From positions 18,527-82,526 of the IMG/VR virus record IMGVR_UViG_3300025881_000010: 64,000 bases of DNA, one strand, 5' to 3'. Every line of letters begins with the position of its first letter. Position 1 is the first letter of the stretch. The position numbers and the translations under genes were made by a program. Below are positions 30,621-64,000 of this stretch, piece after piece. The notes beneath the pieces were generated by a model. The model was not told the DNA's origin and ran no database searches. It was given only the letters and a program-made list of their open reading frames with translations. Source of the stretch: a virus.

Positions 30621-32858
30621 TTAAGCTTTTTGAGGTGTCTTTTTTGTATCACTTCGATCTTTTTGTTCTAATTCAGCAGCTTTTACTCTTTCGGTTGTAG
30701 TAGCTTTCATACCTTCTGTGATAGCTTTATTGTTAGCATATGTATCAGCAATTCTTTCTTGAGAAGCATTTCTATCATCAGCAATTTGTTTTGTCTGTTC
30801 TAGTTTAGCTTGTTCGGTTTGAGCTTCTAATTTAGCTTGTTCCTCAGCAGCTTTTCTATTTGCTTCTTGCAATTCCATATAAGATTTCATGGTTCTTTTG
30901 AAAACCGCTTTTTTCTCTGAAGCTGTTTCAGCTTCGAGAACATCAATTAAACCTTCCATCATTTCAATAGCATTTGAAGATGATAAAGCTTGTTCTGCAG
31001 CGGCATCAATTCTTTGAGCTTTTTCTTTATCCTTACGGCTATCAGATAAATAAATACCTAAATCAGATTCAAAAAACTCTTTGTAAATCTTAATGAATTT
31101 AGCTTCTAAATCTCCAAAAGCCATTTGTAATACTTCTCCTTCAGAATAATCATGTTTAGATTTCATGATCACTCGCTCAATAAGCGTTTGCACAAATTCA
31201 TCAAAAGGAGTGAATACAACTTCTGTACGTGCAGCTGAACCCGCGATTGCGGCATTAGTTCCTCCGGCAGTTTGGTATTGTCCAACTTGACCTTCACGCT
31301 CTGGAGATATCCCTACAAACTTACTAGCCATATCTTCAATCATTGCCAAAGCAGTAAACATATCTTGCATAGTTCCTTTTGCAGATAAGTCAAGTGAATT
31401 GAATTGATTGAAAGTATTTTTTTGTTGAGCTCTATCTTTAGAGTTTATGAACATGATCTTATCTTTCTTGATGTGGTGCATTACTCTATCAAGTGCAGAA
31501 TCATATCCTTTTTTAGAAACATCTTTAGGAGTTTGAGCAACATCATATATTAAAATACGACTATCTCCCATGTGCTTTACAGCAAGTCTAATTTCGAAAA
31601 GAATTTCAGAAGCTAATTGTTGTAGTTGATACAATTTAGCAGCTGGTGATTTTATTTGAGAACTTCCAGTAGCAATATCTCTAACTAAAGAAACTACCGG
31701 TAATTTACAAATATATGGATTGTCAATAGAAGAGAAACGTTGTTTCATAATTCCAAAATCCAAGCATATTTCAGGACCTAACATTTGAACAAATCTTGGC
31801 ACTTCACCATAGATTTCTTTTATGTTATCGTTCTCTCTGGCTTTTTCATCTATACCTAGTTTCTTATAAAAAACTTTTTGAGTTTTTTTGCTTTCAGAAA
31901 CTTTGATAGAAACTTTTTTCTGAGATTTCCACATACCGCTAACCACTCTCATACGTGTAGTTTTGTTATCGGTATTTACCCAGCCATCATACTTCTTAGC
32001 GTTTTTTAAAGGCTCACTATTATTGGTATTATCTCCAGTAGTAAAAGCACTAAAGATAGCATTTACAGCATCTTTCTTTTTCTTATCTAATTTGAAAATA
32101 TTGAAAATCTCATTTTTCGTCAACCAATAGTTTTCGAAAAAATATTCATGATCATCTTGAATAGCTTGATAAGGATCTGTATCATGGTCAGCATCTAAAG
32201 GATGCACTTTTCTTGCAATAGTATGGCCTTTCATTTTATCAACTATTGCATGGCATTGATCAGCAATACAAAAGTCAGTGAACATTTCCGGTATTCTATT
32301 TTTACCTTTATTCACTTCAAGCCAAAGCTGTGCTAAATTATCAGCTACATCTTCAGCAATCATTTTGAACTTCTTAGTCATGAACTCTTCTACATCTGGA
32401 GGAAGCTCAACATCTTTGTGTTGAGTTTCAATCTCAAATCCAAGTTCTTCTTTAGTTTCTTGCGATACCCCACGCATTACTTCTTCAGTAAGAAGATCTA
32501 ATTTTTTATCTAACTTTTTTGAAATTGATTTTTTATCTATAACGTAAGCTTTTTTCCTAAGTGGTCGGCTCATGTATTCCCCAACAATTTGCTCGATCTT
32601 AGTTTGAATCAAAGGATAAACAATAAATTGAACTCCCAAATTAACTCCATTAGGACAAGTGATGGATTTTACAAGTCCTTCTTGTTCTGGAGATAGTTCA
32701 GCAAAGTAAGCTCGATAAAGCTTTTCAATTTCTTTTTTTCTATCATCTGCAGTTCCAGGATTAGAAAATCTAGCATACTCTATAGCATGCTTAATGTGAA
32801 ATTCCTCGTTCTTCTGATTTTCAGGAATTGTTTGGTCGGGGAGTGCAAAGTAACTCAT
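30621..32858 (-). CDS. Portal protein (745 aa)
   Basis: YPLIQTKIE.IVGE, FNQF.SLDLS and GISPEREGQ motifs, C-terminal coiled coil; adjacent to terminase. Confidence 0.9.
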   Translation of the reverse strand: MSYFALPDQTIPENQKNEEFHIKHAIEYARFSNPGTADDRKKEIEKLYRAYFAELSPEQEGLVKSITCPNGVNLGVQFIVYPLIQTKIEQIVGEYMSRPLRKKAYVIDKKSISKKLDKKLDLLTEEVMRGVSQETKEELGFEIETQHKDVELPPDVEEFMTKKFKMIAEDVADNLAQLWLEVNKGKNRIPEMFTDFCIADQCHAIVDKMKGHTIARKVHPLDADHDTDPYQAIQDDHEYFFENYWLTKNEIFNIFKLDKKKKDAVNAIFSAFTTGDNTNNSEPLKNAKKYDGWVNTDNKTTRMRVVSGMWKSQKKVSIKVSESKKTQKVFYKKLGIDEKARENDNIKEIYGEVPRFVQMLGPEICLDFGIMKQRFSSIDNPYICKLPVVSLVRDIATGSSQIKSPAAKLYQLQQLASEILFEIRLAVKHMGDSRILIYDVAQTPKDVSKKGYDSALDRVMHHIKKDKIMFINSKDRAQQKNTFNQFNSLDLSAKGTMQDMFTALAMIEDMASKFVGISPEREGQVGQYQTAGGTNAAIAGSAARTEVVFTPFDEFVQTLIERVIMKSKHDYSEGEVLQMAFGDLEAKFIKIYKEFFESDLGIYLSDSRKDKEKAQRIDAAAEQALSSSNAIEMMEGLIDVLEAETASEKKAVFKRTMKSYMELQEANRKAAEEQAKLEAQTEQAKLEQTKQIADDRNASQERIADTYANNKAITEGMKATTTERVKAAELEQKDRSDTKKTPQKA

Positions 32859-32882: not shown

Positions 32883-35090
32883 TTAATTATTATTTATTTT
32901 CTTATGATGTTCGTTCAAAATGAATGACATAGGATCATGACCGTATTTGTCAAGTATATCTTGTCGCTCTTTCTCAATGTATCTTTGATTCTCTACAATA
33001 GTACTTTCATACTTTTCTTTTTCATATCCTTCAAGATCATATTCTGGTTTGAATTGAATTAAATCTTCATCGTAAGAATAAGGATCTTTCTTGTTTGTTA
33101 ATTGTCCAAAGGTTTGATATTCGTATTGTCCGTTTTCATTTACAACCCAAGTTCCTGCACCATCTAATTCAGAAACATCATTATGGTCTTCTTCTATACC
33201 ATCGGTAAGATCTCCGAAAATACTCATTTTATAAATCATTGCCATTGCAAAAGCAGAACCTAAATCTGAGTTTTCTTCTCCGAAGTCAATAAGATGCAAC
33301 AATATTTCTTCAAACCAGATATTATTCCAGAAATTATTAACCTCAGCTTTTAAAAGCTTCGCAGATAATTTCCATGAATGCTGATTGGACATTTTAAATC
33401 CATATGTATTCGCAGCATTAGAACTATAACCATCTATATCAGGTCTTCCGGCAAGATGCTTAGTACCACCACAATCAATGAAATGTTGCTTGATAGCAAT
33501 CTTAGTATATTCCAGTAGCATTTCTGAACCATAATATACCGTTAGTCTGAATGTTTGAGAATAGAAGACATCATCTTCATCTGAAGTTCCACGATCTAGT
33601 ATATACGCGATAGGGAGATTGCAAACTTTATTTATACTGTAGAAACAGCGATACACAATCGTTGCACCTTCAGAACCAGTACCTTCTTTTACTTCATCAT
33701 CATAACTATCACAAGCAACTAAGTCAGGACAGTAAGGAAGATTTTTGGAATCAATAGGATCCATAATCTTCTTAACAGTACCAAATTCTTTATCATCTAC
33801 AAAAACAGCTTTAGAACCTCTAGTGAAATGTATCTTGTCATATTCTTTCAAGTTTTTGGCTCTGGCCGCAAGCTTTTCAGTTATAGGATCATTAGTCTTC
33901 CACTCAATTCTACCTGTCTTAATTTCGTAAGGGCAGTTATCAAGATTTGCTAATTGAGCATTAAGTTTTTGGCGATTTAAATAACCACCTGAATTCTTAA
34001 TGAAAATATCAGCTTCTTTAAGTGGGTATGATTGAATATGTTTTACATAACCTTCAGAACCTTCTTTTTCTAAACGCTCTTTAATGATGTGCTCATGAGC
34101 AGCTTTAGAATTTGTTCTACCTGTACGGAAATCAAAGAATGATATTTTTTCTCCTGTTTCTTCATCAGGAATTCCATCTCCAGGATAGTAATCAGTAGCA
34201 GAAACAAAAACTTTTTTAAGGTTGTAAGTTTCTTTACGGCTATGCCACATGCTCTTATATCCTTTAGAACCTTTATCAATTTCTCCACCGGTACCATATA
34301 CAAGTGGTGTTCCAAATTGAATAGATCCTTCTTTGAAACATGGTTCGGTAGATTTGTATGCAGCAATTAAATCTTCGAAAAGTCCAGCTTCTTCAAAGAT
34401 TACCATAGAAAGCGATTTACCCTCAAAACCTGTTGGTTTTGCGTACATCGTTTTCATGTACATACTGGATTTTAAACCACCTTCTTTTTTCTGTTTGTTC
34501 TCTGTGTATTGGTAAGATAATCTGATTTCATCAGCATTACGAACACTGATACTGGACCTGTATTCAGGTCTAATATTGTCAAGTAGATATTGCACTTTCT
34601 CATAGAAATCTTGTGCTTTATCATCTTGTCCGGCAGCTACTCCAATTTTGTTTCCTTTGTAGAATAATAATTCATAAGCTGAAGAAGTAGAACCTACCCA
34701 CGATAAACCTACTCGACGTGGTTTACCAATAACAAGTCCATAATGACCTCTTTTAGCTTGATGTATTTCATCGAATAATCTCCTATCTAATTCTCTGTAG
34801 AATGGAGAACCCATGCTTTTTCTTGTTGCTCCTGGTTCCAGAAGCTCAATGTTACACATGTTTAGGTAAAAGTAATGTTCACCTGTGATTGAAGGCATGT
34901 AAGCTCTAGGCTTATAACCATTGATACAACGGTTATCTTGTTCATCCCAAAAATCATCATATGCGATAGTTCCCGGATTATAGTCAGGAATTTCTTCCTC
35001 TATAAGCGGACGATAGTATGTACTATCAAAACGATCCCAATTGATATTTACTTCCATAAGTAGGTTATTAAAAAAGGCACCGGTATTCAT
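32883..35090 (-). CDS. terL: Terminase large subunit (735 aa)
   Basis: Walker A KPRRVGLS, Walker B VIFEEAG, GTGG motif, nuclease-domain CDSYD; no intein or intron seen. Confidence 0.92.
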   Translation of the reverse strand: MNTGAFFNNLLMEVNINWDRFDSTYYRPLIEEEIPDYNPGTIAYDDFWDEQDNRCINGYKPRAYMPSITGEHYFYLNMCNIELLEPGATRKSMGSPFYRELDRRLFDEIHQAKRGHYGLVIGKPRRVGLSWVGSTSSAYELLFYKGNKIGVAAGQDDKAQDFYEKVQYLLDNIRPEYRSSISVRNADEIRLSYQYTENKQKKEGGLKSSMYMKTMYAKPTGFEGKSLSMVIFEEAGLFEDLIAAYKSTEPCFKEGSIQFGTPLVYGTGGEIDKGSKGYKSMWHSRKETYNLKKVFVSATDYYPGDGIPDEETGEKISFFDFRTGRTNSKAAHEHIIKERLEKEGSEGYVKHIQSYPLKEADIFIKNSGGYLNRQKLNAQLANLDNCPYEIKTGRIEWKTNDPITEKLAARAKNLKEYDKIHFTRGSKAVFVDDKEFGTVKKIMDPIDSKNLPYCPDLVACDSYDDEVKEGTGSEGATIVYRCFYSINKVCNLPIAYILDRGTSDEDDVFYSQTFRLTVYYGSEMLLEYTKIAIKQHFIDCGGTKHLAGRPDIDGYSSNAANTYGFKMSNQHSWKLSAKLLKAEVNNFWNNIWFEEILLHLIDFGEENSDLGSAFAMAMIYKMSIFGDLTDGIEEDHNDVSELDGAGTWVVNENGQYEYQTFGQLTNKKDPYSYDEDLIQFKPEYDLEGYEKEKYESTIVENQRYIEKERQDILDKYGHDPMSFILNEHHKKINNN

Positions 35091-36498: not shown

Positions 36499-36750
36499 TT
36501 ATACTTTGTTACATTTTAGGTTTTTTTTATTCTTTATGTGATTACTAAAATAACCACCTACACTCGGAGAGTCCGCTAACTTGTCGTAATCTTTTCGCTC
36601 TAATGGAGCATAAGCATAGACAGTATCATTCGTTTTGAAATGAACGTAAAGTGTTTTCTTTTCAGGATAATAAGCGATCTCTTGAATAAGACCGCTATTT
36701 TTCACTTTAGTTCTAGGCCATGATGGATTAATTGGTAATATGTGATCCAT
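36499..36750 (-). CDS. KTSC domain protein
   Basis: S.LI.EIAY.....L.V.F...VYAY...S.S.G.YF...IK is the KTSC pattern. Confidence 0.85.
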   Translation of the reverse strand: MDHILPINPSWPRTKVKNSGLIQEIAYYPEKKTLYVHFKTNDTVYAYAPLERKDYDKLADSPSVGGYFSNHIKNKKNLKCNKV

Positions 36751-37073
36751 TATGATTCTATTTTAAATTCTTCCCAGTCTTCAGCCATGATATCAGTTTG
36801 ACTTGCTAACCATCCGTTTACGATAGTATCATCAGCTGCTTTCATACAGATGTATGAAGTTACTTTTACAAATTCAAAAACTTCTTTACGCCCAAGATGT
36901 TTTCTATCATAATATCTTTTCACTTCATCAGGAATTGATACTGCATTAAAAAATACATGTGCTGGAAGTTTATCTTCAGGACGTGAAAAAAGAAACATAT
37001 CTTTTCCGTTCCAACCTTTACGAGTTACGAGCTTTCCTTCTTTAAGTAGCTCTATTGCTTGTCCAAAATTCAT
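36750..37073 (-). CDS. DUF2829 / Thoeris anti-defence 2 (Tad2)-like nucleotide-sponge protein
   Basis: MNFGQAIE.LK.G..V.R.GWNGK.MF ... W.ASQTD..AEDW signature. Confidence 0.85.
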   Translation of the reverse strand: MNFGQAIELLKEGKLVTRKGWNGKDMFLFSRPEDKLPAHVFFNAVSIPDEVKRYYDRKHLGRKEVFEFVKVTSYICMKAADDTIVNGWLASQTDIMAEDWEEFKIES

Positions 37074-39718: not shown

Positions 39719-39985
39719 TTATTGTTTCGGTTCAATCGTCAACCAACCACCATCCGGTAACAACTTCAGGTTTTCAGTTTTTTTAATAATAATATCATCT
39801 GCAAGAACCTCATTGTAGATAATAATTTTTCCTACAAATTTTGGATCAAGATCCTTCCCAACTTTTAAAATTTCTGCAGCAGTTAATAAAACTCGATTAG
39901 ATGCAAAATTGCTTTTAAAATAATCTGAAATAGGTTTGATCAAAAATTTTTTGGAAGGAATTTCAATGTCATTGTAGTCTTTCAT
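39719..39985 (-). CDS. GroES-like co-chaperonin (88 aa, divergent)
   Basis: K.LIKP ... AEIL.VG ... VG.III(Y) beta-barrel pattern; two genes upstream of groEL. Confidence 0.65.
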   Translation of the reverse strand: MKDYNDIEIPSKKFLIKPISDYFKSNFASNRVLLTAAEILKVGKDLDPKFVGKIIIYNEVLADDIIIKKTENLKLLPDGGWLTIEPKQ

Positions 39986-40000
39986 GTATATATAAATAAC

Positions 40001-40027
40001 GTAAACCCGCTGATAGTGCGGGTTTAC
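40001..40027. terminator. Perfect 10-bp hairpin upstream of the groES-like gene (terminator or attenuator)
   Basis: GTAAACCCGC-N7-GCGGGTTTAC; weak U-tract on the minus strand. Confidence 0.6.
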
Positions 40028-40083
40028 AGGTGATTAATAAAATAAGTTAATAAATAATTATGTGGGGGGTAGCATGTAGTCAT
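40024..40083 (-). other. Micro-ORF MTTCYPPHNYLLTYFINHL (19 aa) / short RNA
   Basis: Between the promoter at 40109 and the hairpin; the stop codon lies in the hairpin 5' arm. Confidence 0.4.
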
Positions 40084-40146: not shown

Positions 40147-40386
40147 TTAAGAAAATTTCGGCATTAAAGTCAAAGCATGTTGTTTTGCCATTTCCAAAGA
40201 CTCTCTCATTCTTTTTTGAAAATTTAATTTTCTTTGTTCTATCATTTCTTCAGTAGCATATATTGGTTGTGGATCTATAACAAATATTCCATATCCATGC
40301 AACGATGCTATTGTATGAATAAAACCCCAATCATATCCTTTATCTAAAAGAATTTCATAAAATCTTTGATCTTGCCATTGTGCCAT
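40147..40386 (-). CDS. Small protein with a weak portal-clip-like segment (79 aa)
   Basis: KGYD...GIFVIDP aligns without gaps to portal KGYD...KIMFINS. Confidence 0.55.
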   Translation of the reverse strand: MAQWQDQRFYEILLDKGYDWGFIHTIASLHGYGIFVIDPQPIYATEEMIEQRKLNFQKRMRESLEMAKQHALTLMPKFS

Positions 40387-40388
40387 AT

Positions 40389-40709
40389 CTAAAAGTTTGA
40401 GAATATAAATCCACAATCATTTGGATTGCGTTCTTTGCTATTAATAAACATAATTTTGTCTCGCTTTATATGATGCATCAATCTATCCAGATCTTCTTTA
40501 CTTACGCTAGGCAAAAAGTCTATATCGTAAACTAAAACTCTTGGCGGTTCTACAAAATACTGTAATCCCAATATAGGATCATAGTTGAATACCATCGTTG
40601 TCTGAATTGAATTTTTTAATTCTTCTGGATAAGGATTTACAGAAATCTTCTTATGAGTAATAGGAATTAAACCAGTCTCAATAGCCATCCTTCTTAATTC
40701 TTCGATCAT
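40389..40709 (-). CDS. Small protein containing a copy of the portal clip segment (106 aa)
   Basis: LDRLMHHIKRDKIMFINSKER vs portal LDRVMHHIKKDKIMFINSKDR; ATG 40709 follows the upstream stop. Confidence 0.8.
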   Translation of the reverse strand: MIEELRRMAIETGLIPITHKKISVNPYPEELKNSIQTTMVFNYDPILGLQYFVEPPRVLVYDIDFLPSVSKEDLDRLMHHIKRDKIMFINSKERNPNDCGFIFSNF

Positions 40710-40710
40710 A

Positions 40711-40896
40711 TCAATTTTGAATTTCTTTTTTAATAAATCTTTTTTGAAATTCTTGATTTTCCATAGCAAATAAATAATCAAATACTTTTCGCTTATAAAC
40801 TACAATTGTTATTCCTAATAATTTTTCACCCATTCCTGCAGTCATAGAATCAATTACTTCTATTTCTTCTTTATTTTTTTTATCAGTATATATCAT
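40711..40896 (-). CDS. DUF1653-like small beta protein (61 aa)
   Basis: Y...K...EV ... VVY ... F...F..RF pattern. Confidence 0.5.
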   Translation of the reverse strand: MIYTDKKNKEEIEVIDSMTAGMGEKLLGITIVVYKRKVFDYLFAMENQEFQKRFIKKEIQN

Positions 40897-40914: not shown

Positions 40915-40947
40915 AAAAAAAAAGCCGGCAATATTTCTATCACCGGC
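40915..40947 (-). terminator. Intrinsic terminator of the candidate sRNA
   Basis: GCCGGTGATA-GAAA-TATTGCCGGC followed by T9. Confidence 0.85.
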
Positions 40948-41066
40948 GCCCCCAATACCGAGAATAGTCCTACACTACTCTCTGCACTATTTCAATCTCT
41001 TTCAAATGCCTTTCTCAAGGTGGACATCAGTAAGTGTCTCATCATTACCATATCTGAAATAATACT
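40915..41066 (-). ncRNA. Candidate ~150-nt trans-acting sRNA (also holds a 19-aa ORF at 40992-41051)
   Basis: Own consensus promoter and strong terminator, no long ORF, G-rich seed GTATTGGGGGC at 40948-40958; the 5' end is an estimate. Confidence 0.6.
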
Positions 41067-41070
41067 TCTA

Positions 41071-41101
41071 CAAATATATACTACGTCATTTTGACGTGCA
41101 A
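41071..41101 (-). promoter_or_regulatory. Promoter TTG-N20-TATATTTG with perfect operator ACGTCA-TTT-TGACGT (41083-41097)
   Basis: Consensus Bacteroidetes -33/-7 with a palindrome in the spacer. Confidence 0.75.
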
Positions 41102-42275: not shown

Positions 42276-42533
42276 ATGGGATCATTTAAATCTATTACGT
42301 TCAAAGCAGTATCAATCGTAAGTGGCGAACTGCACTTTATGGCACAATCAACAGCTGATTCAATCAAGCACGCTGAAGGCTATCTAGGTCACAAGCTCAC
42401 AGGAGCCAACAAGCAAGACATCATGTCTAAGCGAGTACAACTAACCAAGGCTCAACAAGCAGACTACAAGAAGTGTGCACAAACCTTGAGAGGTACTATG
42501 TCCAACAAGTTTAAGGCTATAACACTAGACTAA
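42276..42533 (+). CDS. First early protein (85 aa), paralogue of 46569-46934
   Basis: Shared F..T.K.V.I..GE.HF...S.ADSI...E....HKL. Confidence 0.75.
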   Translation: MGSFKSITFKAVSIVSGELHFMAQSTADSIKHAEGYLGHKLTGANKQDIMSKRVQLTKAQQADYKKCAQTLRGTMSNKFKAITLD

Positions 42534-46442: not shown

Positions 46443-46568
46443 TACATTCAAATCCACACTATAGTGTAGATTATAATACATTACTAAAACAATGTTTCAA
46501 AAAAACATCTAATTCCTCATTACAATGTGGAATTAGATGTAATTAATAATAATTTAATTCAATTCAAG

Positions 46569-46934
46569 ATGGGAACAAATAACAGAGGATCCAGAGGATC
46601 TAAAAAAGAGAAAGCTAATAAGTCAAACAAAATGACATTCAGAAGATTTACCGCTAAAACTGTACAAATATTTACAGGTGAAGCACACTTTTTAGTTAAA
46701 TCTGCAGCTGATAGTATCGTAGCTACTGAAGCTACAATAGTTCATAAACTATTACCAGATATACCGTATAATCATATTTATGCGGATCGTCATAACAAGA
46801 CTGAAGCTAAGCAAGAGCGTATCATTAATGATTGCAAGAAGCTTAAAGAGAACATGAACAAGATGTTCGCTTCAGCTAGCAAATGTGGTAATGATGCTGA
46901 TAGCATTTATAATGCTGAACTTAATCAACAGTAA
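46569..46934 (+). CDS. Early protein, paralogue of 42276-42533 (121 aa)
   Basis: Shared motif; ATG 46569 preferred. Confidence 0.75.
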   Translation: MGTNNRGSRGSKKEKANKSNKMTFRRFTAKTVQIFTGEAHFLVKSAADSIVATEATIVHKLLPDIPYNHIYADRHNKTEAKQERIINDCKKLKENMNKMFASASKCGNDADSIYNAELNQQ

Positions 46935-62664: not shown

Positions 62665-62886
62665 ATGATATTTCTAATATTAGCTCAAGTTTTAAGAGCA
62701 GCATTAATATGGACAACTGGATATACTGCCAAGAGAGTTACTAAAACTTTCATCTGTATGTTCGTTACGTGCTACTTACTTGAAAGATTAAAACGACAAA
62801 ATTATATAGATAACAAACGTGGATATAACACCGACCCCGAGCCAAGAAGTATTGGTAACGAAAATAGACAAGTTCCTCAACAGTAG
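62665..62886 (+). CDS. Small hydrophobic protein (73 aa)
   Basis: ORF; overlaps the helicase start by 68 nt. Confidence 0.45.
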   Translation: MIFLILAQVLRAALIWTTGYTAKRVTKTFICMFVTCYLLERLKRQNYIDNKRGYNTDPEPRSIGNENRQVPQQ

Positions 62887-64000
62887 TCATAAAATATTTA
62901 GATTGACAGGGGAGCCCGGAGTTGGTAAAACGACCATACTTAAATATGTTCTTCGGAAATACATAGAATCCGATTTGAATGCTAACAATAAGTATGATAT
63001 AAGCGTAGCGGGAATATGTTTAGCGCACCAAGCCAAGAAAGTTCTTGGTGCGTATATTCCTAACGTTTTTACTTTTGCCAAAGCTTACGGAATGAAAGAA
63101 GAGTATGTGGAAGCTACTGGAGCACGTAGGTTCGTTTATGACGAAAAAAATAAAGATCCTACTATAGGAACTATGGACATTCCAATATTTGTTCATGATG
63201 AAGTTTCTCAGTACACACCGCAAATGCTTGAAATTGTATTGAACAGTACTCCAATGTTCAGTAAGATTATTTTAGTTGGAGATAGAGCGCAGTTACCGCC
63301 AATAGATCCTGATGGAATAATGGAAGAAGATTCTGATTCTCCAGTATTCTTTATGGACTTACCGGAAGAATGTACTCACAACCTTACAGGGAGAGTTCGT
63401 CAAACTGCAGGAAATAAAATCCTTGAATTATCAGATGTCATAAGAGCTGAAATATTTGGATTGAGAAGATTAGGAGTAGTGCTATCATATTTGAATAAAC
63501 CTCAAATGATAGATGGTCATGGATTTGATTTCATTTCATTTGAAAATTACCTTAGTCATTTAGAACAAAAGGAATTCATGGATTGTAGGTTAATAGCTTT
63601 TAGAAGAAAAGCCATTAACAAGCATAATCCGAATGTTAGAAATTATCTGTTAAATAATCCTACCAGTAAACTTGTCGATGGAGATATAGTTACTATGGAA
63701 GATAGTTTCTACAAATTTAATGATATGGGAGATGTAGATTACATACTCTATAATTCCGAAACATTTAGATTAACTGATGTTCGCACAGCTGTAAAGAAAT
63801 TTGAGCGTGGTGGTAATGAATATAGTATTGAAACTTACTTCGCAAATATTGAAGGAAGACAAGGAGATATTTTCATTGCACCTACAGAAGTAGGTGAAGA
63901 ACAATTAAAAGAAGCACTGGAAGAAATTGCTCAAATGGTTTATCGTAAGATATTGCATTGGGGAAATTTCTGGTCAGTAAAAAAAGCTTTTTGTAAATAT
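62819..64000 (+). CDS. Dda/RecD-like SF1B helicase, truncated by the window end
   Basis: Absent from the ORF track. GTG 62819 (MDITPTPSQ...), G.PGVGKTT, DEVSQ, VGDRAQLPPI, RVRQ. Confidence 0.9.
   Translation, partial: MDITPTPSQEVLVTKIDKFLNSSHKIFRLTGEPGVGKTTILKYVLRKYIESDLNANNKYDISVAGICLAHQAKKVLGAYIPNVFTFAKAYGMKEEYVEATGARRFVYDEKNKDPTIGTMDIPIFVHDEVSQYTPQMLEIVLNSTPMFSKIILVGDRAQLPPIDPDGIMEEDSDSPVFFMDLPEECTHNLTGRVRQTAGNKILELSDVIRAEIFGLRRLGVVLSYLNKPQMIDGHGFDFISFENYLSHLEQKEFMDCRLIAFRRKAINKHNPNVRNYLLNNPTSKLVDGDIVTMEDSFYKFNDMGDVDYILYNSETFRLTDVRTAVKKFERGGNEYSIETYFANIEGRQGDIFIAPTEVGEEQLKEALEEIAQMVYRKILHWGNFWSVKKAFCKY

Follow-up and report, generated by a model that had tools for sequence, protein, structure and literature searches.

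The window analysed here, a stretch of 64,000 nt, was taken from a viral record of 82,526 bp (bases 18527-82526), which stems from a marine metagenome and is complete according to CheckV. The last ORF of the record (window 62810-64000, plus strand) recurs at genome bases 1-357 with 98% identity over 62 aa, and the contig ends therefore overlap, through either a terminal repeat or a circularly permuted assembly. A megablast search with the region matched no cultured phage, indicating that none is close at the DNA level. Among sequencing runs, the stretch was found in its source marine DNA metagenome only, with no RNA run listed. The genome encodes a crAss-type portal protein of 745 aa (30621-32858, minus strand; phrog_6547, E-value 3e-39; crAss001 gp20, PDB 7QOG, E-value 4e-14) and a large terminase of 735 aa (32883-35090, minus strand; phrog_6681, E-value 1e-48).

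About 7.5 kb from the portal gene, in an accessory region, lies a small ORF (40389-40709, minus strand) that encodes a free-standing, clip-like mini-protein of family phrog_35052. The ORF is intact and specifies 106 aa plus stop when read from its ATG, or 130 aa if an upstream TTG is the start. It is the middle member of a tightly coupled cassette of three ORFs (40896-40147, minus strand): its ATG at 40709 is located 1 nt past the stop of a 61-aa ORF with no family match (40711-40896, minus strand), while the ATG of a 79-aa ORF (40147-40386, minus strand) follows 2 nt past its own stop. The 79-aa product is not clip-like (BLASTP against the portal, E-value 3.5; hhalign against the family, E-value 0.31). 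Terminator-like hairpins flank the cassette directly upstream (40924-40947, minus strand, with a T run) and directly downstream (40000-40028, minus strand). The upstream hairpin closes a short unit without a long ORF (40915-41101, minus strand), which carries a TATATTTG box near 41072-41079 and ends in this strong hairpin and T9 (40947-40924). As no clear promoter of its own was found for the cassette, it may rely on read-through of the terminator at 40947-40924.

Downstream of the cassette, we identified a possible GroES-like gene of 88 aa (39719-39985, minus strand; BLASTP against the Cpn10 of relative G008, E-value 0.002; no Pfam match), a 323-aa ORF, a full phage GroEL (37075-38727, minus strand; PF00118, E-value 1e-48; phrog_5725, E-value 7e-123), a Tad2-like (DUF2829) gene (36750-37073, minus strand; PF11195, E-value 7e-24) and, beside it, a KTSC-domain gene (36499-36750, minus strand). 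A reading of this locus made earlier from the sequence alone had noticed the Tad2-like gene, and the Pfam match bears this out. Tad2-like genes are also found near the family gene in the relatives G002 and G006. The Tad2-like/KTSC pair recurs in G006 (L026:7397-8306), and a KTSC gene is present in G008 (L028:7762-8001). The family gene of this phage is thus located in a variable region with a Tad2-like gene, a setting typical for genes of counter-defence.

Chaperonin genes occur in several relatives, with GroEL in G001 and G002 and one or two Cpn10 genes in G006, G008 and Cellulophaga phage phi17:2. In G008, the family gene is located directly upstream of a true Cpn10 gene (PF00166 above cut-off). 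In G006, one GIY-YIG homing-endonuclease-like gene (L026:10225-10869) separates the family gene from Cpn10 (PF00166 above cut-off). The small protein itself has no PF00166 or other Pfam match, so Cpn10 is the identity of its neighbours in relatives and not its own. G001, a CheckV-complete relative, has the same portal type and a GroEL but lacks the family gene, which is therefore accessory.

Similarity of the small protein to the portal clip

Residues 57-94 of the small protein align with residues 434-476 of the portal from the same genome (BLASTP E-value 9e-13, 26/43 identical, one 5-residue gap). The core of this alignment (40428-40490 versus 31431-31493 in the portal gene) is identical in 18 of 21 residues. 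Among the 16 identical non-Met codons in the core, 12 differ synonymously, including Ser AGC/TCT and Arg CGC/AGA. The sequence-only reading had reported both the alignment and the codon count, and an exact recount agrees with it. Across all 38 aligned codons, 69 of 114 nucleotides (61%) and 14 of 38 third positions are identical, no stretch of identity is longer than 6 nt, pN is 0.25 and the synonymous sites have reached saturation. In an all-against-all BLASTP of the 581 ORFs of the whole 82.5-kb genome, the small ORF and the portal formed one of four paralogous pairs at an E-value of 1e-3 or below (E-value 1e-10). The match can therefore be put down neither to chance nor to a repeat in the DNA or an artefact of assembly. 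A DNA-level element as the source of the similarity was likewise ruled out by the 61% nucleotide identity and the lack of any identical run above 6 nt. The similarity is real and old, it exists at the protein level only, and the clip copy is kept by selection on its protein sequence.

Another of the four intragenomic similarities pairs the ORFs at 42276-42533 and 46527-46934 (both plus strand; 46% over 39 aa, E-value 4e-7). A homologue of the former is located at the same divergent junction in G002 (L020:2869-3138).

The portal segment concerned (31431-31559, minus strand) was assigned from BLASTP, the alignment to gp20 and secondary structure. It is situated between two long predicted helices (residues 405-430 and 497-515) and contains a short helix (452-466). 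The AlphaFold2 model of the portal (pLDDT 39) is unreliable in three dimensions, and for both this model and that of the small protein (pLDDT 59) we used secondary structure only. HMMER aligned the segment to crAss001 gp20 at approximately residues 458-500, directly preceding the inner stem helix of gp20 (519-541), which is followed by a tunnel loop at 550-563 (PMC10172136). Because of its position between the two stem helices, we identify the segment as the clip. The same had been proposed in the sequence-only reading, and both the flanking helices and the gp20 alignment agree with it. Related portals, with an identity of 52-55% elsewhere, show strong conservation in the clip segment. In portals generally, the clip joins the two stem helices, consists of three strands and one helix and is exposed outside the capsid, where it docks the terminase and later the neck or tail; it also forms the only main-chain inter-subunit sheet of the portal (PMC4493910; also PMC12847820). 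The docking partner of the clip in crAss001 is ring protein R1 (PMC10172136).

Profile comparison of the in-clade small proteins with the in-clade portals supported the same correspondence (hhalign E-value 4e-12), with residues 11-67 of the small proteins aligned to portal residues 425-488. As a whole, the small protein matches no portal in Pfam, PDB or PHROG; the similarity covers portal residues 425-488, and the protein does not qualify as a full portal with the order wing-stem-clip-stem-wing-crown. No usable match was found in the ESM Atlas. Since the phi17:2 homologue follows a helicase gene, we also weighed a likeness to SNF2 helicase motifs V-VI from a PDB sequence search (E-value 1.2), which was at chance level and was dropped as unsupported.

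Four parts can be distinguished in the small protein. An N-terminal extension (residues 1-38; 40596-40709, minus strand) is absent from most family members in the alignments. These start at the residue equivalent to M39, although P0002 and P0003 are also extended, and a start at the internal M39 would give a protein of 68 aa here. The extension is followed by the family-defining motif M-x-[YF]-x-Y-[DH]-P-I-L-G-L-Q-Y (residues 39-53; 40551-40595, minus strand), which does not occur in the portal and is predicted to form a β-hairpin with strands 40-44 and 49-53 (AlphaFold2, block pLDDT about 70). The clip-like segment (residues 57-94; 40428-40541, minus strand), delimited by BLASTP and hhalign, has the order strand, loop, helix, strand, and its predicted helix 71-83 aligns with the predicted portal helix 452-466. 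The family-conserved C-terminal tail (residues 95-106; 40392-40427, minus strand) ends in I-x-S-N-F and is placed by hhalign on the third clip element of the portal, the F-N-Q-F region. AlphaFold2 predicted helix 71-83 and the extra hairpin but left the clip strands unformed. A complex prediction of portal residues 395-530 with small protein residues 39-106 scored 0.02, with the fold of the partner itself uncertain, and was given no weight on either side of the question of binding.

The phrog_35052 family and its portals

The small protein matches phrog_35052 (hmmscan E-value 2.7e-8), with residues 39-89 aligned to positions 1-51 of the 69 in the profile. A profile search yielded at least 58 clusters at 90% identity, nearly all of 63-75 aa, which carry hypothetical-protein labels only, with neither a Pfam domain nor a meaningful name. 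An exhaustive HMMER search of 1.84 billion representatives added three further relatives. By tblastn, homologues were found only in Cellulophaga phages phi17:2 (gp083) and phi4:1 (gp081), both of 69 aa and adjoining helicase and RecA genes, and when P0022, a typical member, served as the query, the cultured-phage collection gave no match. In a 52-row alignment of the family, Y43, P45, I46, G48 and L49 are invariant. Members begin with Y-[DH]-P-I-L-G-L-Q-Y at their first residues, continue with a hydrophobic strand ending in I-D-x-x-x-[IL]-P, a helix and a G-h-x-h-x-[DN]-S strand, and close with a conserved tail. The in-clade and out-clade halves of the family are homologous over their full length (hhalign E-value 3.5e-19). 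The sequence-only reading had described the gene as an old duplication under purifying selection, carried by a stand-alone small protein. Its age and selection are upheld by the saturated synonymous sites and low pN, but the gene is no lineage-specific orphan duplication; it belongs to a wider family with an N-terminal motif that is missing from the portal, and homologues are present and not decaying.

Within this family the small protein is atypical, as its 106 aa exceed the usual length of about 63-75 aa and its motif begins at residue 39 rather than at the extreme N-terminus. With gp083 and gp081 it has in common the Y-[DH]-P-I-L-G-L-Q-Y motif, an L-P-x-x-S-K-E-D-L loop and the C-terminal I-x-S-N-F. 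Unlike them, it has the 38-aa extension, and its helix and second strand follow its own portal nearly residue for residue, whereas the Cellulophaga proteins have no detectable match to their own portals.

Several members show further variation. A 39-aa copy in G009, a 63-kb record with terminal repeats (L029:9989-10105), retains the motif and has lost the clip-like part; to judge from its sequence, it looks like a decaying copy. P0004, an in-clade protein of 129 aa, is prolonged at its C-terminus by some 60 aa rich in Cys (C-x-x-C ... C), possibly a zinc-binding add-on. P0007 and P0008 (65 aa, on G008-like contigs) are labelled 'thioredoxin reductase' in one source, for which their sequences give no support, and this looks like an annotation error.

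The crAss-type portal phrog_6547 is encoded in all eight family-gene records checked (this phage, G002, phi17:2, G006, G008, G009 and two Flavobacteriaceae MAGs) and in none of 14 control genomes. This co-occurrence proves little alone because all of the records may belong to one broad phage lineage. At the extra metagenome and MAG loci, no portal was found within 10 kb of the family gene.

We compared members with the clips of their own and other portals. The small protein of this phage scored 120 against its own portal clip (Smith-Waterman, z 25), 93-101 against the clips of related portals and 21-35 against those of other portal clades; it is identical to its own portal at 26 of 38 positions and to six related portals at 21-22. 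The G006 and G008 proteins matched the clips of their own clade with z 4-5. The protein of a Flavobacterium MAG matched the full-length portal of the same MAG (z 6.1) and phi17:2-type portals (z 4.5-7.1), in the clip in each case. The phi17:2 protein gp083 had no detectable match to its own portal (z 0.9), and for the G002 copy the match to its own portal is poorer than that to other portals of the clade. The idea raised in the sequence-only reading, that each homologue might track its cognate portal, is thus borne out for two or three lineages, at the level of the clade, and is not universal.

Profile comparisons gave a similar picture. A 30-member sub-family profile aligned with phi17:2-type portals at an E-value of 0.004 and with the other three portal types at 0.06-0.4, with the best match on the clip each time. 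The family without the members of this clade aligned with all nine portals in the same register (E-value 4e-4), and in four related genomes the sole match of the full family profile was the portal clip. A larger out-clade profile compared with the in-clade or the out-clade portals alone aligned on the clip without reaching significance (E-values 0.18 and 0.098), and a five-member out-clade profile was neither significant nor on the clip (hhalign E-values 0.31 and 0.43). In our reading of these comparisons, the family as a whole is an excised clip domain, and its correspondence to the portal appears at clade level in some lineages, being by far strongest in this phage and moderate in the phi17:2-type clade.

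The portal-like residues are distributed differently among members. In the small protein of this phage, strand 1 and especially the helix and strand 2 are portal-like, and the loop L-P-S-V-S-K-E-D-L differs very little from its counterpart in the distant gp083. In the G002 copy, strand 1 and the loop (V-A-Q-I-P-E-D-F) are portal-like, while its helix and strand 2, including the conserved G, look like those of the family at large. That two related lineages bear portal-like patches in different places, each with scrambled codons, is consistent with repeated re-matching and not with a single accident. Such re-matching to the portal would fit either old conversions or selection.

Possible roles of a free-standing clip

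We suggest that the small protein may be a soluble, monovalent mimic of the clip that competes for clip-docking proteins, a proposal that we put just short of being probable. Its predicted fold would be that of a stand-alone clip, consisting of strand 1, the clip helix, strand 2 and the third element, with the family-specific hairpin probably capping the sheet edge that a neighbouring subunit covers in the portal ring. The helix and strand residues that it shares with the clip of its own phage are M-H-H-I-K-[KR]-D-K-I-M-F-I-N-S-K, and the conserved residues include polar, probably exposed ones in the helix (H, H, K, K/R, D and K). The retention of these polar residues despite synonymous saturation points to a shared ligand and not to a shared fold alone. 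With the same exposed residues as the clip, the small protein would present the docking surface singly, away from the 12-fold ring. If it is monomeric and binds as the clip does, a single free clip would compete for the proteins that dock on the portal clip.

Known clip-docking proteins fall into three classes, namely the terminase, the first tail or neck protein and immune sensors of the host, and two kinds of target can be considered. The one we favour, though tentatively, is an Avs4-like or SpbK-like immune sensor that reads portal clips, which takes the larger part of the expectation for a mimic. Clip-sensing proteins of these types contact the portal clip (PMC12847820), and the statement in the sequence-only reading that Avs4 contacts stem and clip agrees with the summary in that paper. 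SpbK docks on the clip helix of the 12-mer portal and is activated by clustering. A monovalent clip would thus occupy the sensor without the full monomer surface or the 12-fold clustering required for firing. The accessory status of the gene and its Tad2-like neighbourhood tip the balance towards an immune-decoy target. The other candidate target, the phage's own terminase or first tail-ring protein, would make the small protein a timing regulator of packaging or tail joining; we consider this distinctly unlikely. Extended to the family, the proposal would be that crAss-portal phages carry clip proteins, repeatedly re-matched to their own portals, as monovalent decoys for Avs4-like or SpbK-like sensors, which is possible rather than probable.

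Several observations stand against a mimic. As judged from the alignments, mimicry at the sequence level is not general, given the lack of a match for gp083 and the preference of the G002 copy for other portals. The N-terminal hairpin, where the family is best conserved, is without a portal counterpart, and a mimic model accounts for it only as a structural cap. The AlphaFold2 model of the small protein is poor, and the expected sheet is not seen in this prediction. A clip mimic could also disturb the phage's own terminase or tail docking.

An assembly role would be equally compatible with the linkage to GroES seen in three divergent phages. Here, the edge of the free clip would take the place of a neighbouring subunit and pair with clip strands in portal subunits that are not yet assembled. 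It would thereby hold the monomers, or steer or restrict the formation of the ring, perhaps in concert with the phage chaperonin, and it could additionally shield the monomer from those sensors that recognise portal monomers. While rather unlikely by our estimate, such a portal-assembly co-factor stays the main rival, and a serious one, in view of the chaperonin linkage and of the role of the clip in the inter-subunit sheet. An isolated clip has a natural binding site on the portal monomer, and the lambda portal depends on host GroEL/GroES for its assembly. All family-gene phages checked encode part of a chaperonin, the small ORF being one ORF from the GroES-like gene and near GroEL here and the family gene being adjacent to Cpn10 in G008 or one homing-endonuclease gene away from it in G006, and one portal type accompanies the family in all eight records. 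Conversely, G001 combines this portal type with GroEL and does without the accessory gene. Moreover, main-chain pairing at a sheet edge would not need identical exposed helix residues, and the link to chaperonins may merely mirror a shared early or accessory region.

It is also conceivable, if doubtful, that the family consists of small α/β proteins whose task has nothing to do with the partners of the clip and which have no more than an old fold kinship to it, and that in this lineage a portal patch entered by recombination and persisted since it fits the fold. Consistent with this, portal similarity is weak outside this clade (hhalign E-values from 0.004 to 0.4) and missing in some members, and the hairpin motif, which does not resemble the portal, is what stays invariant across the family. 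However, a neutral patch should have drifted while the synonymous sites became saturated, and 18 of the 21 core residues remain identical. Four diverged in-clade small proteins retain the portal-like helix and strand, and a second lineage bears a different portal-like patch. The top profile alignments also fell on the clip, which makes up less than a tenth of the portal, in all seven of the larger family-versus-portal comparisons, with the caveat that the small five-member out-clade profile missed it. Finally, a non-functional remnant or spurious ORF, for which the truncated 39-aa copy in G009 might speak, is very improbable, as the reading frame is unbroken and closely coupled to the genes on either side, pN lies well under the synonymous divergence, which is saturated, and the family comprises at least 58 clusters with invariant residues and full-length homology between its in-clade and out-clade halves (hhalign E-value 3.5e-19).

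Comparison with known systems

The small protein has the same order of elements as the crAss-type portal clip (phrog_6547; gp20, 7QOG), namely strand, helix, strand and third element. In contrast to the portal, it has no stem helices, wing or crown and has the extra invariant N-terminal hairpin. Lacking the stem helices, wing and crown, it cannot take up an ordinary subunit position in the portal ring.

Helper factors that work on portal subunits ahead of ring formation or in its course are known from phage T4, where gp40 works with YidC (PMC4493910). None of the portal-assembly helpers (gp40/YidC and GroEL/GroES) is a copy of a portal domain, and no sequence relation to them was seen. The family gene is linked to phage chaperonin genes. 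For a competitor of the terminase, a precedent is PLE Gpi, a small satellite-encoded protein that binds TerL and blocks packaging; Gpi is a weapon of the satellite against its helper phage and is not reported to be portal-like, whereas the small ORF is the phage's own gene (bioRxiv 10.1101/2024.04.22.590561).

Among the proteins that act against clip sensors, Nip of phage Phi3T counters SpbK and, like the proposed decoy, is a small phage protein that neutralises a clip-triggered defence (PMC11984713; PMC12847820). Unlike the proposed decoy, Nip binds the TIR domain of SpbK in a three-part complex with the portal and involves no clip mimicry (PMC11984713; PMC12847820). As the enzyme domain is the target of Nip, no likeness to a portal has been reported for Gpi and our literature search did not find the terms portal, clip domain, decoy and phage combined, the stand-alone clip copies appear to be an undescribed protein family.

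As a hub, the portal clip first engages the packaging motor and later the tail, and it is read by immune proteins of at least two kinds. If the family members are decoys, they would represent a new mode of counter-defence by self-mimicry. Should they instead regulate packaging, tail joining or portal assembly, they would add a new type of morphogenetic factor to the crAss-like lineage, for which little is known of the assembly pathway. These possibilities can be tested directly, as the cultured Cellulophaga phages phi17:2 and phi4:1, with several host strains, carry members.

A precedent for countering a sensor of structural proteins is DSAD1, a phage inhibitor of DSR2, which senses the tail tube (PMC11087589). 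The decoy mechanism is proposed by us and was not taken from PMC11087589. If it is true for the small protein, this would be the first instance of a phage whose immune decoy is a paralogue of the very structural domain that is sensed. DSAD1 is, to our knowledge, not a paralogue of the structural protein sensed by DSR2, whereas the candidate described here would copy the sensed domain itself.
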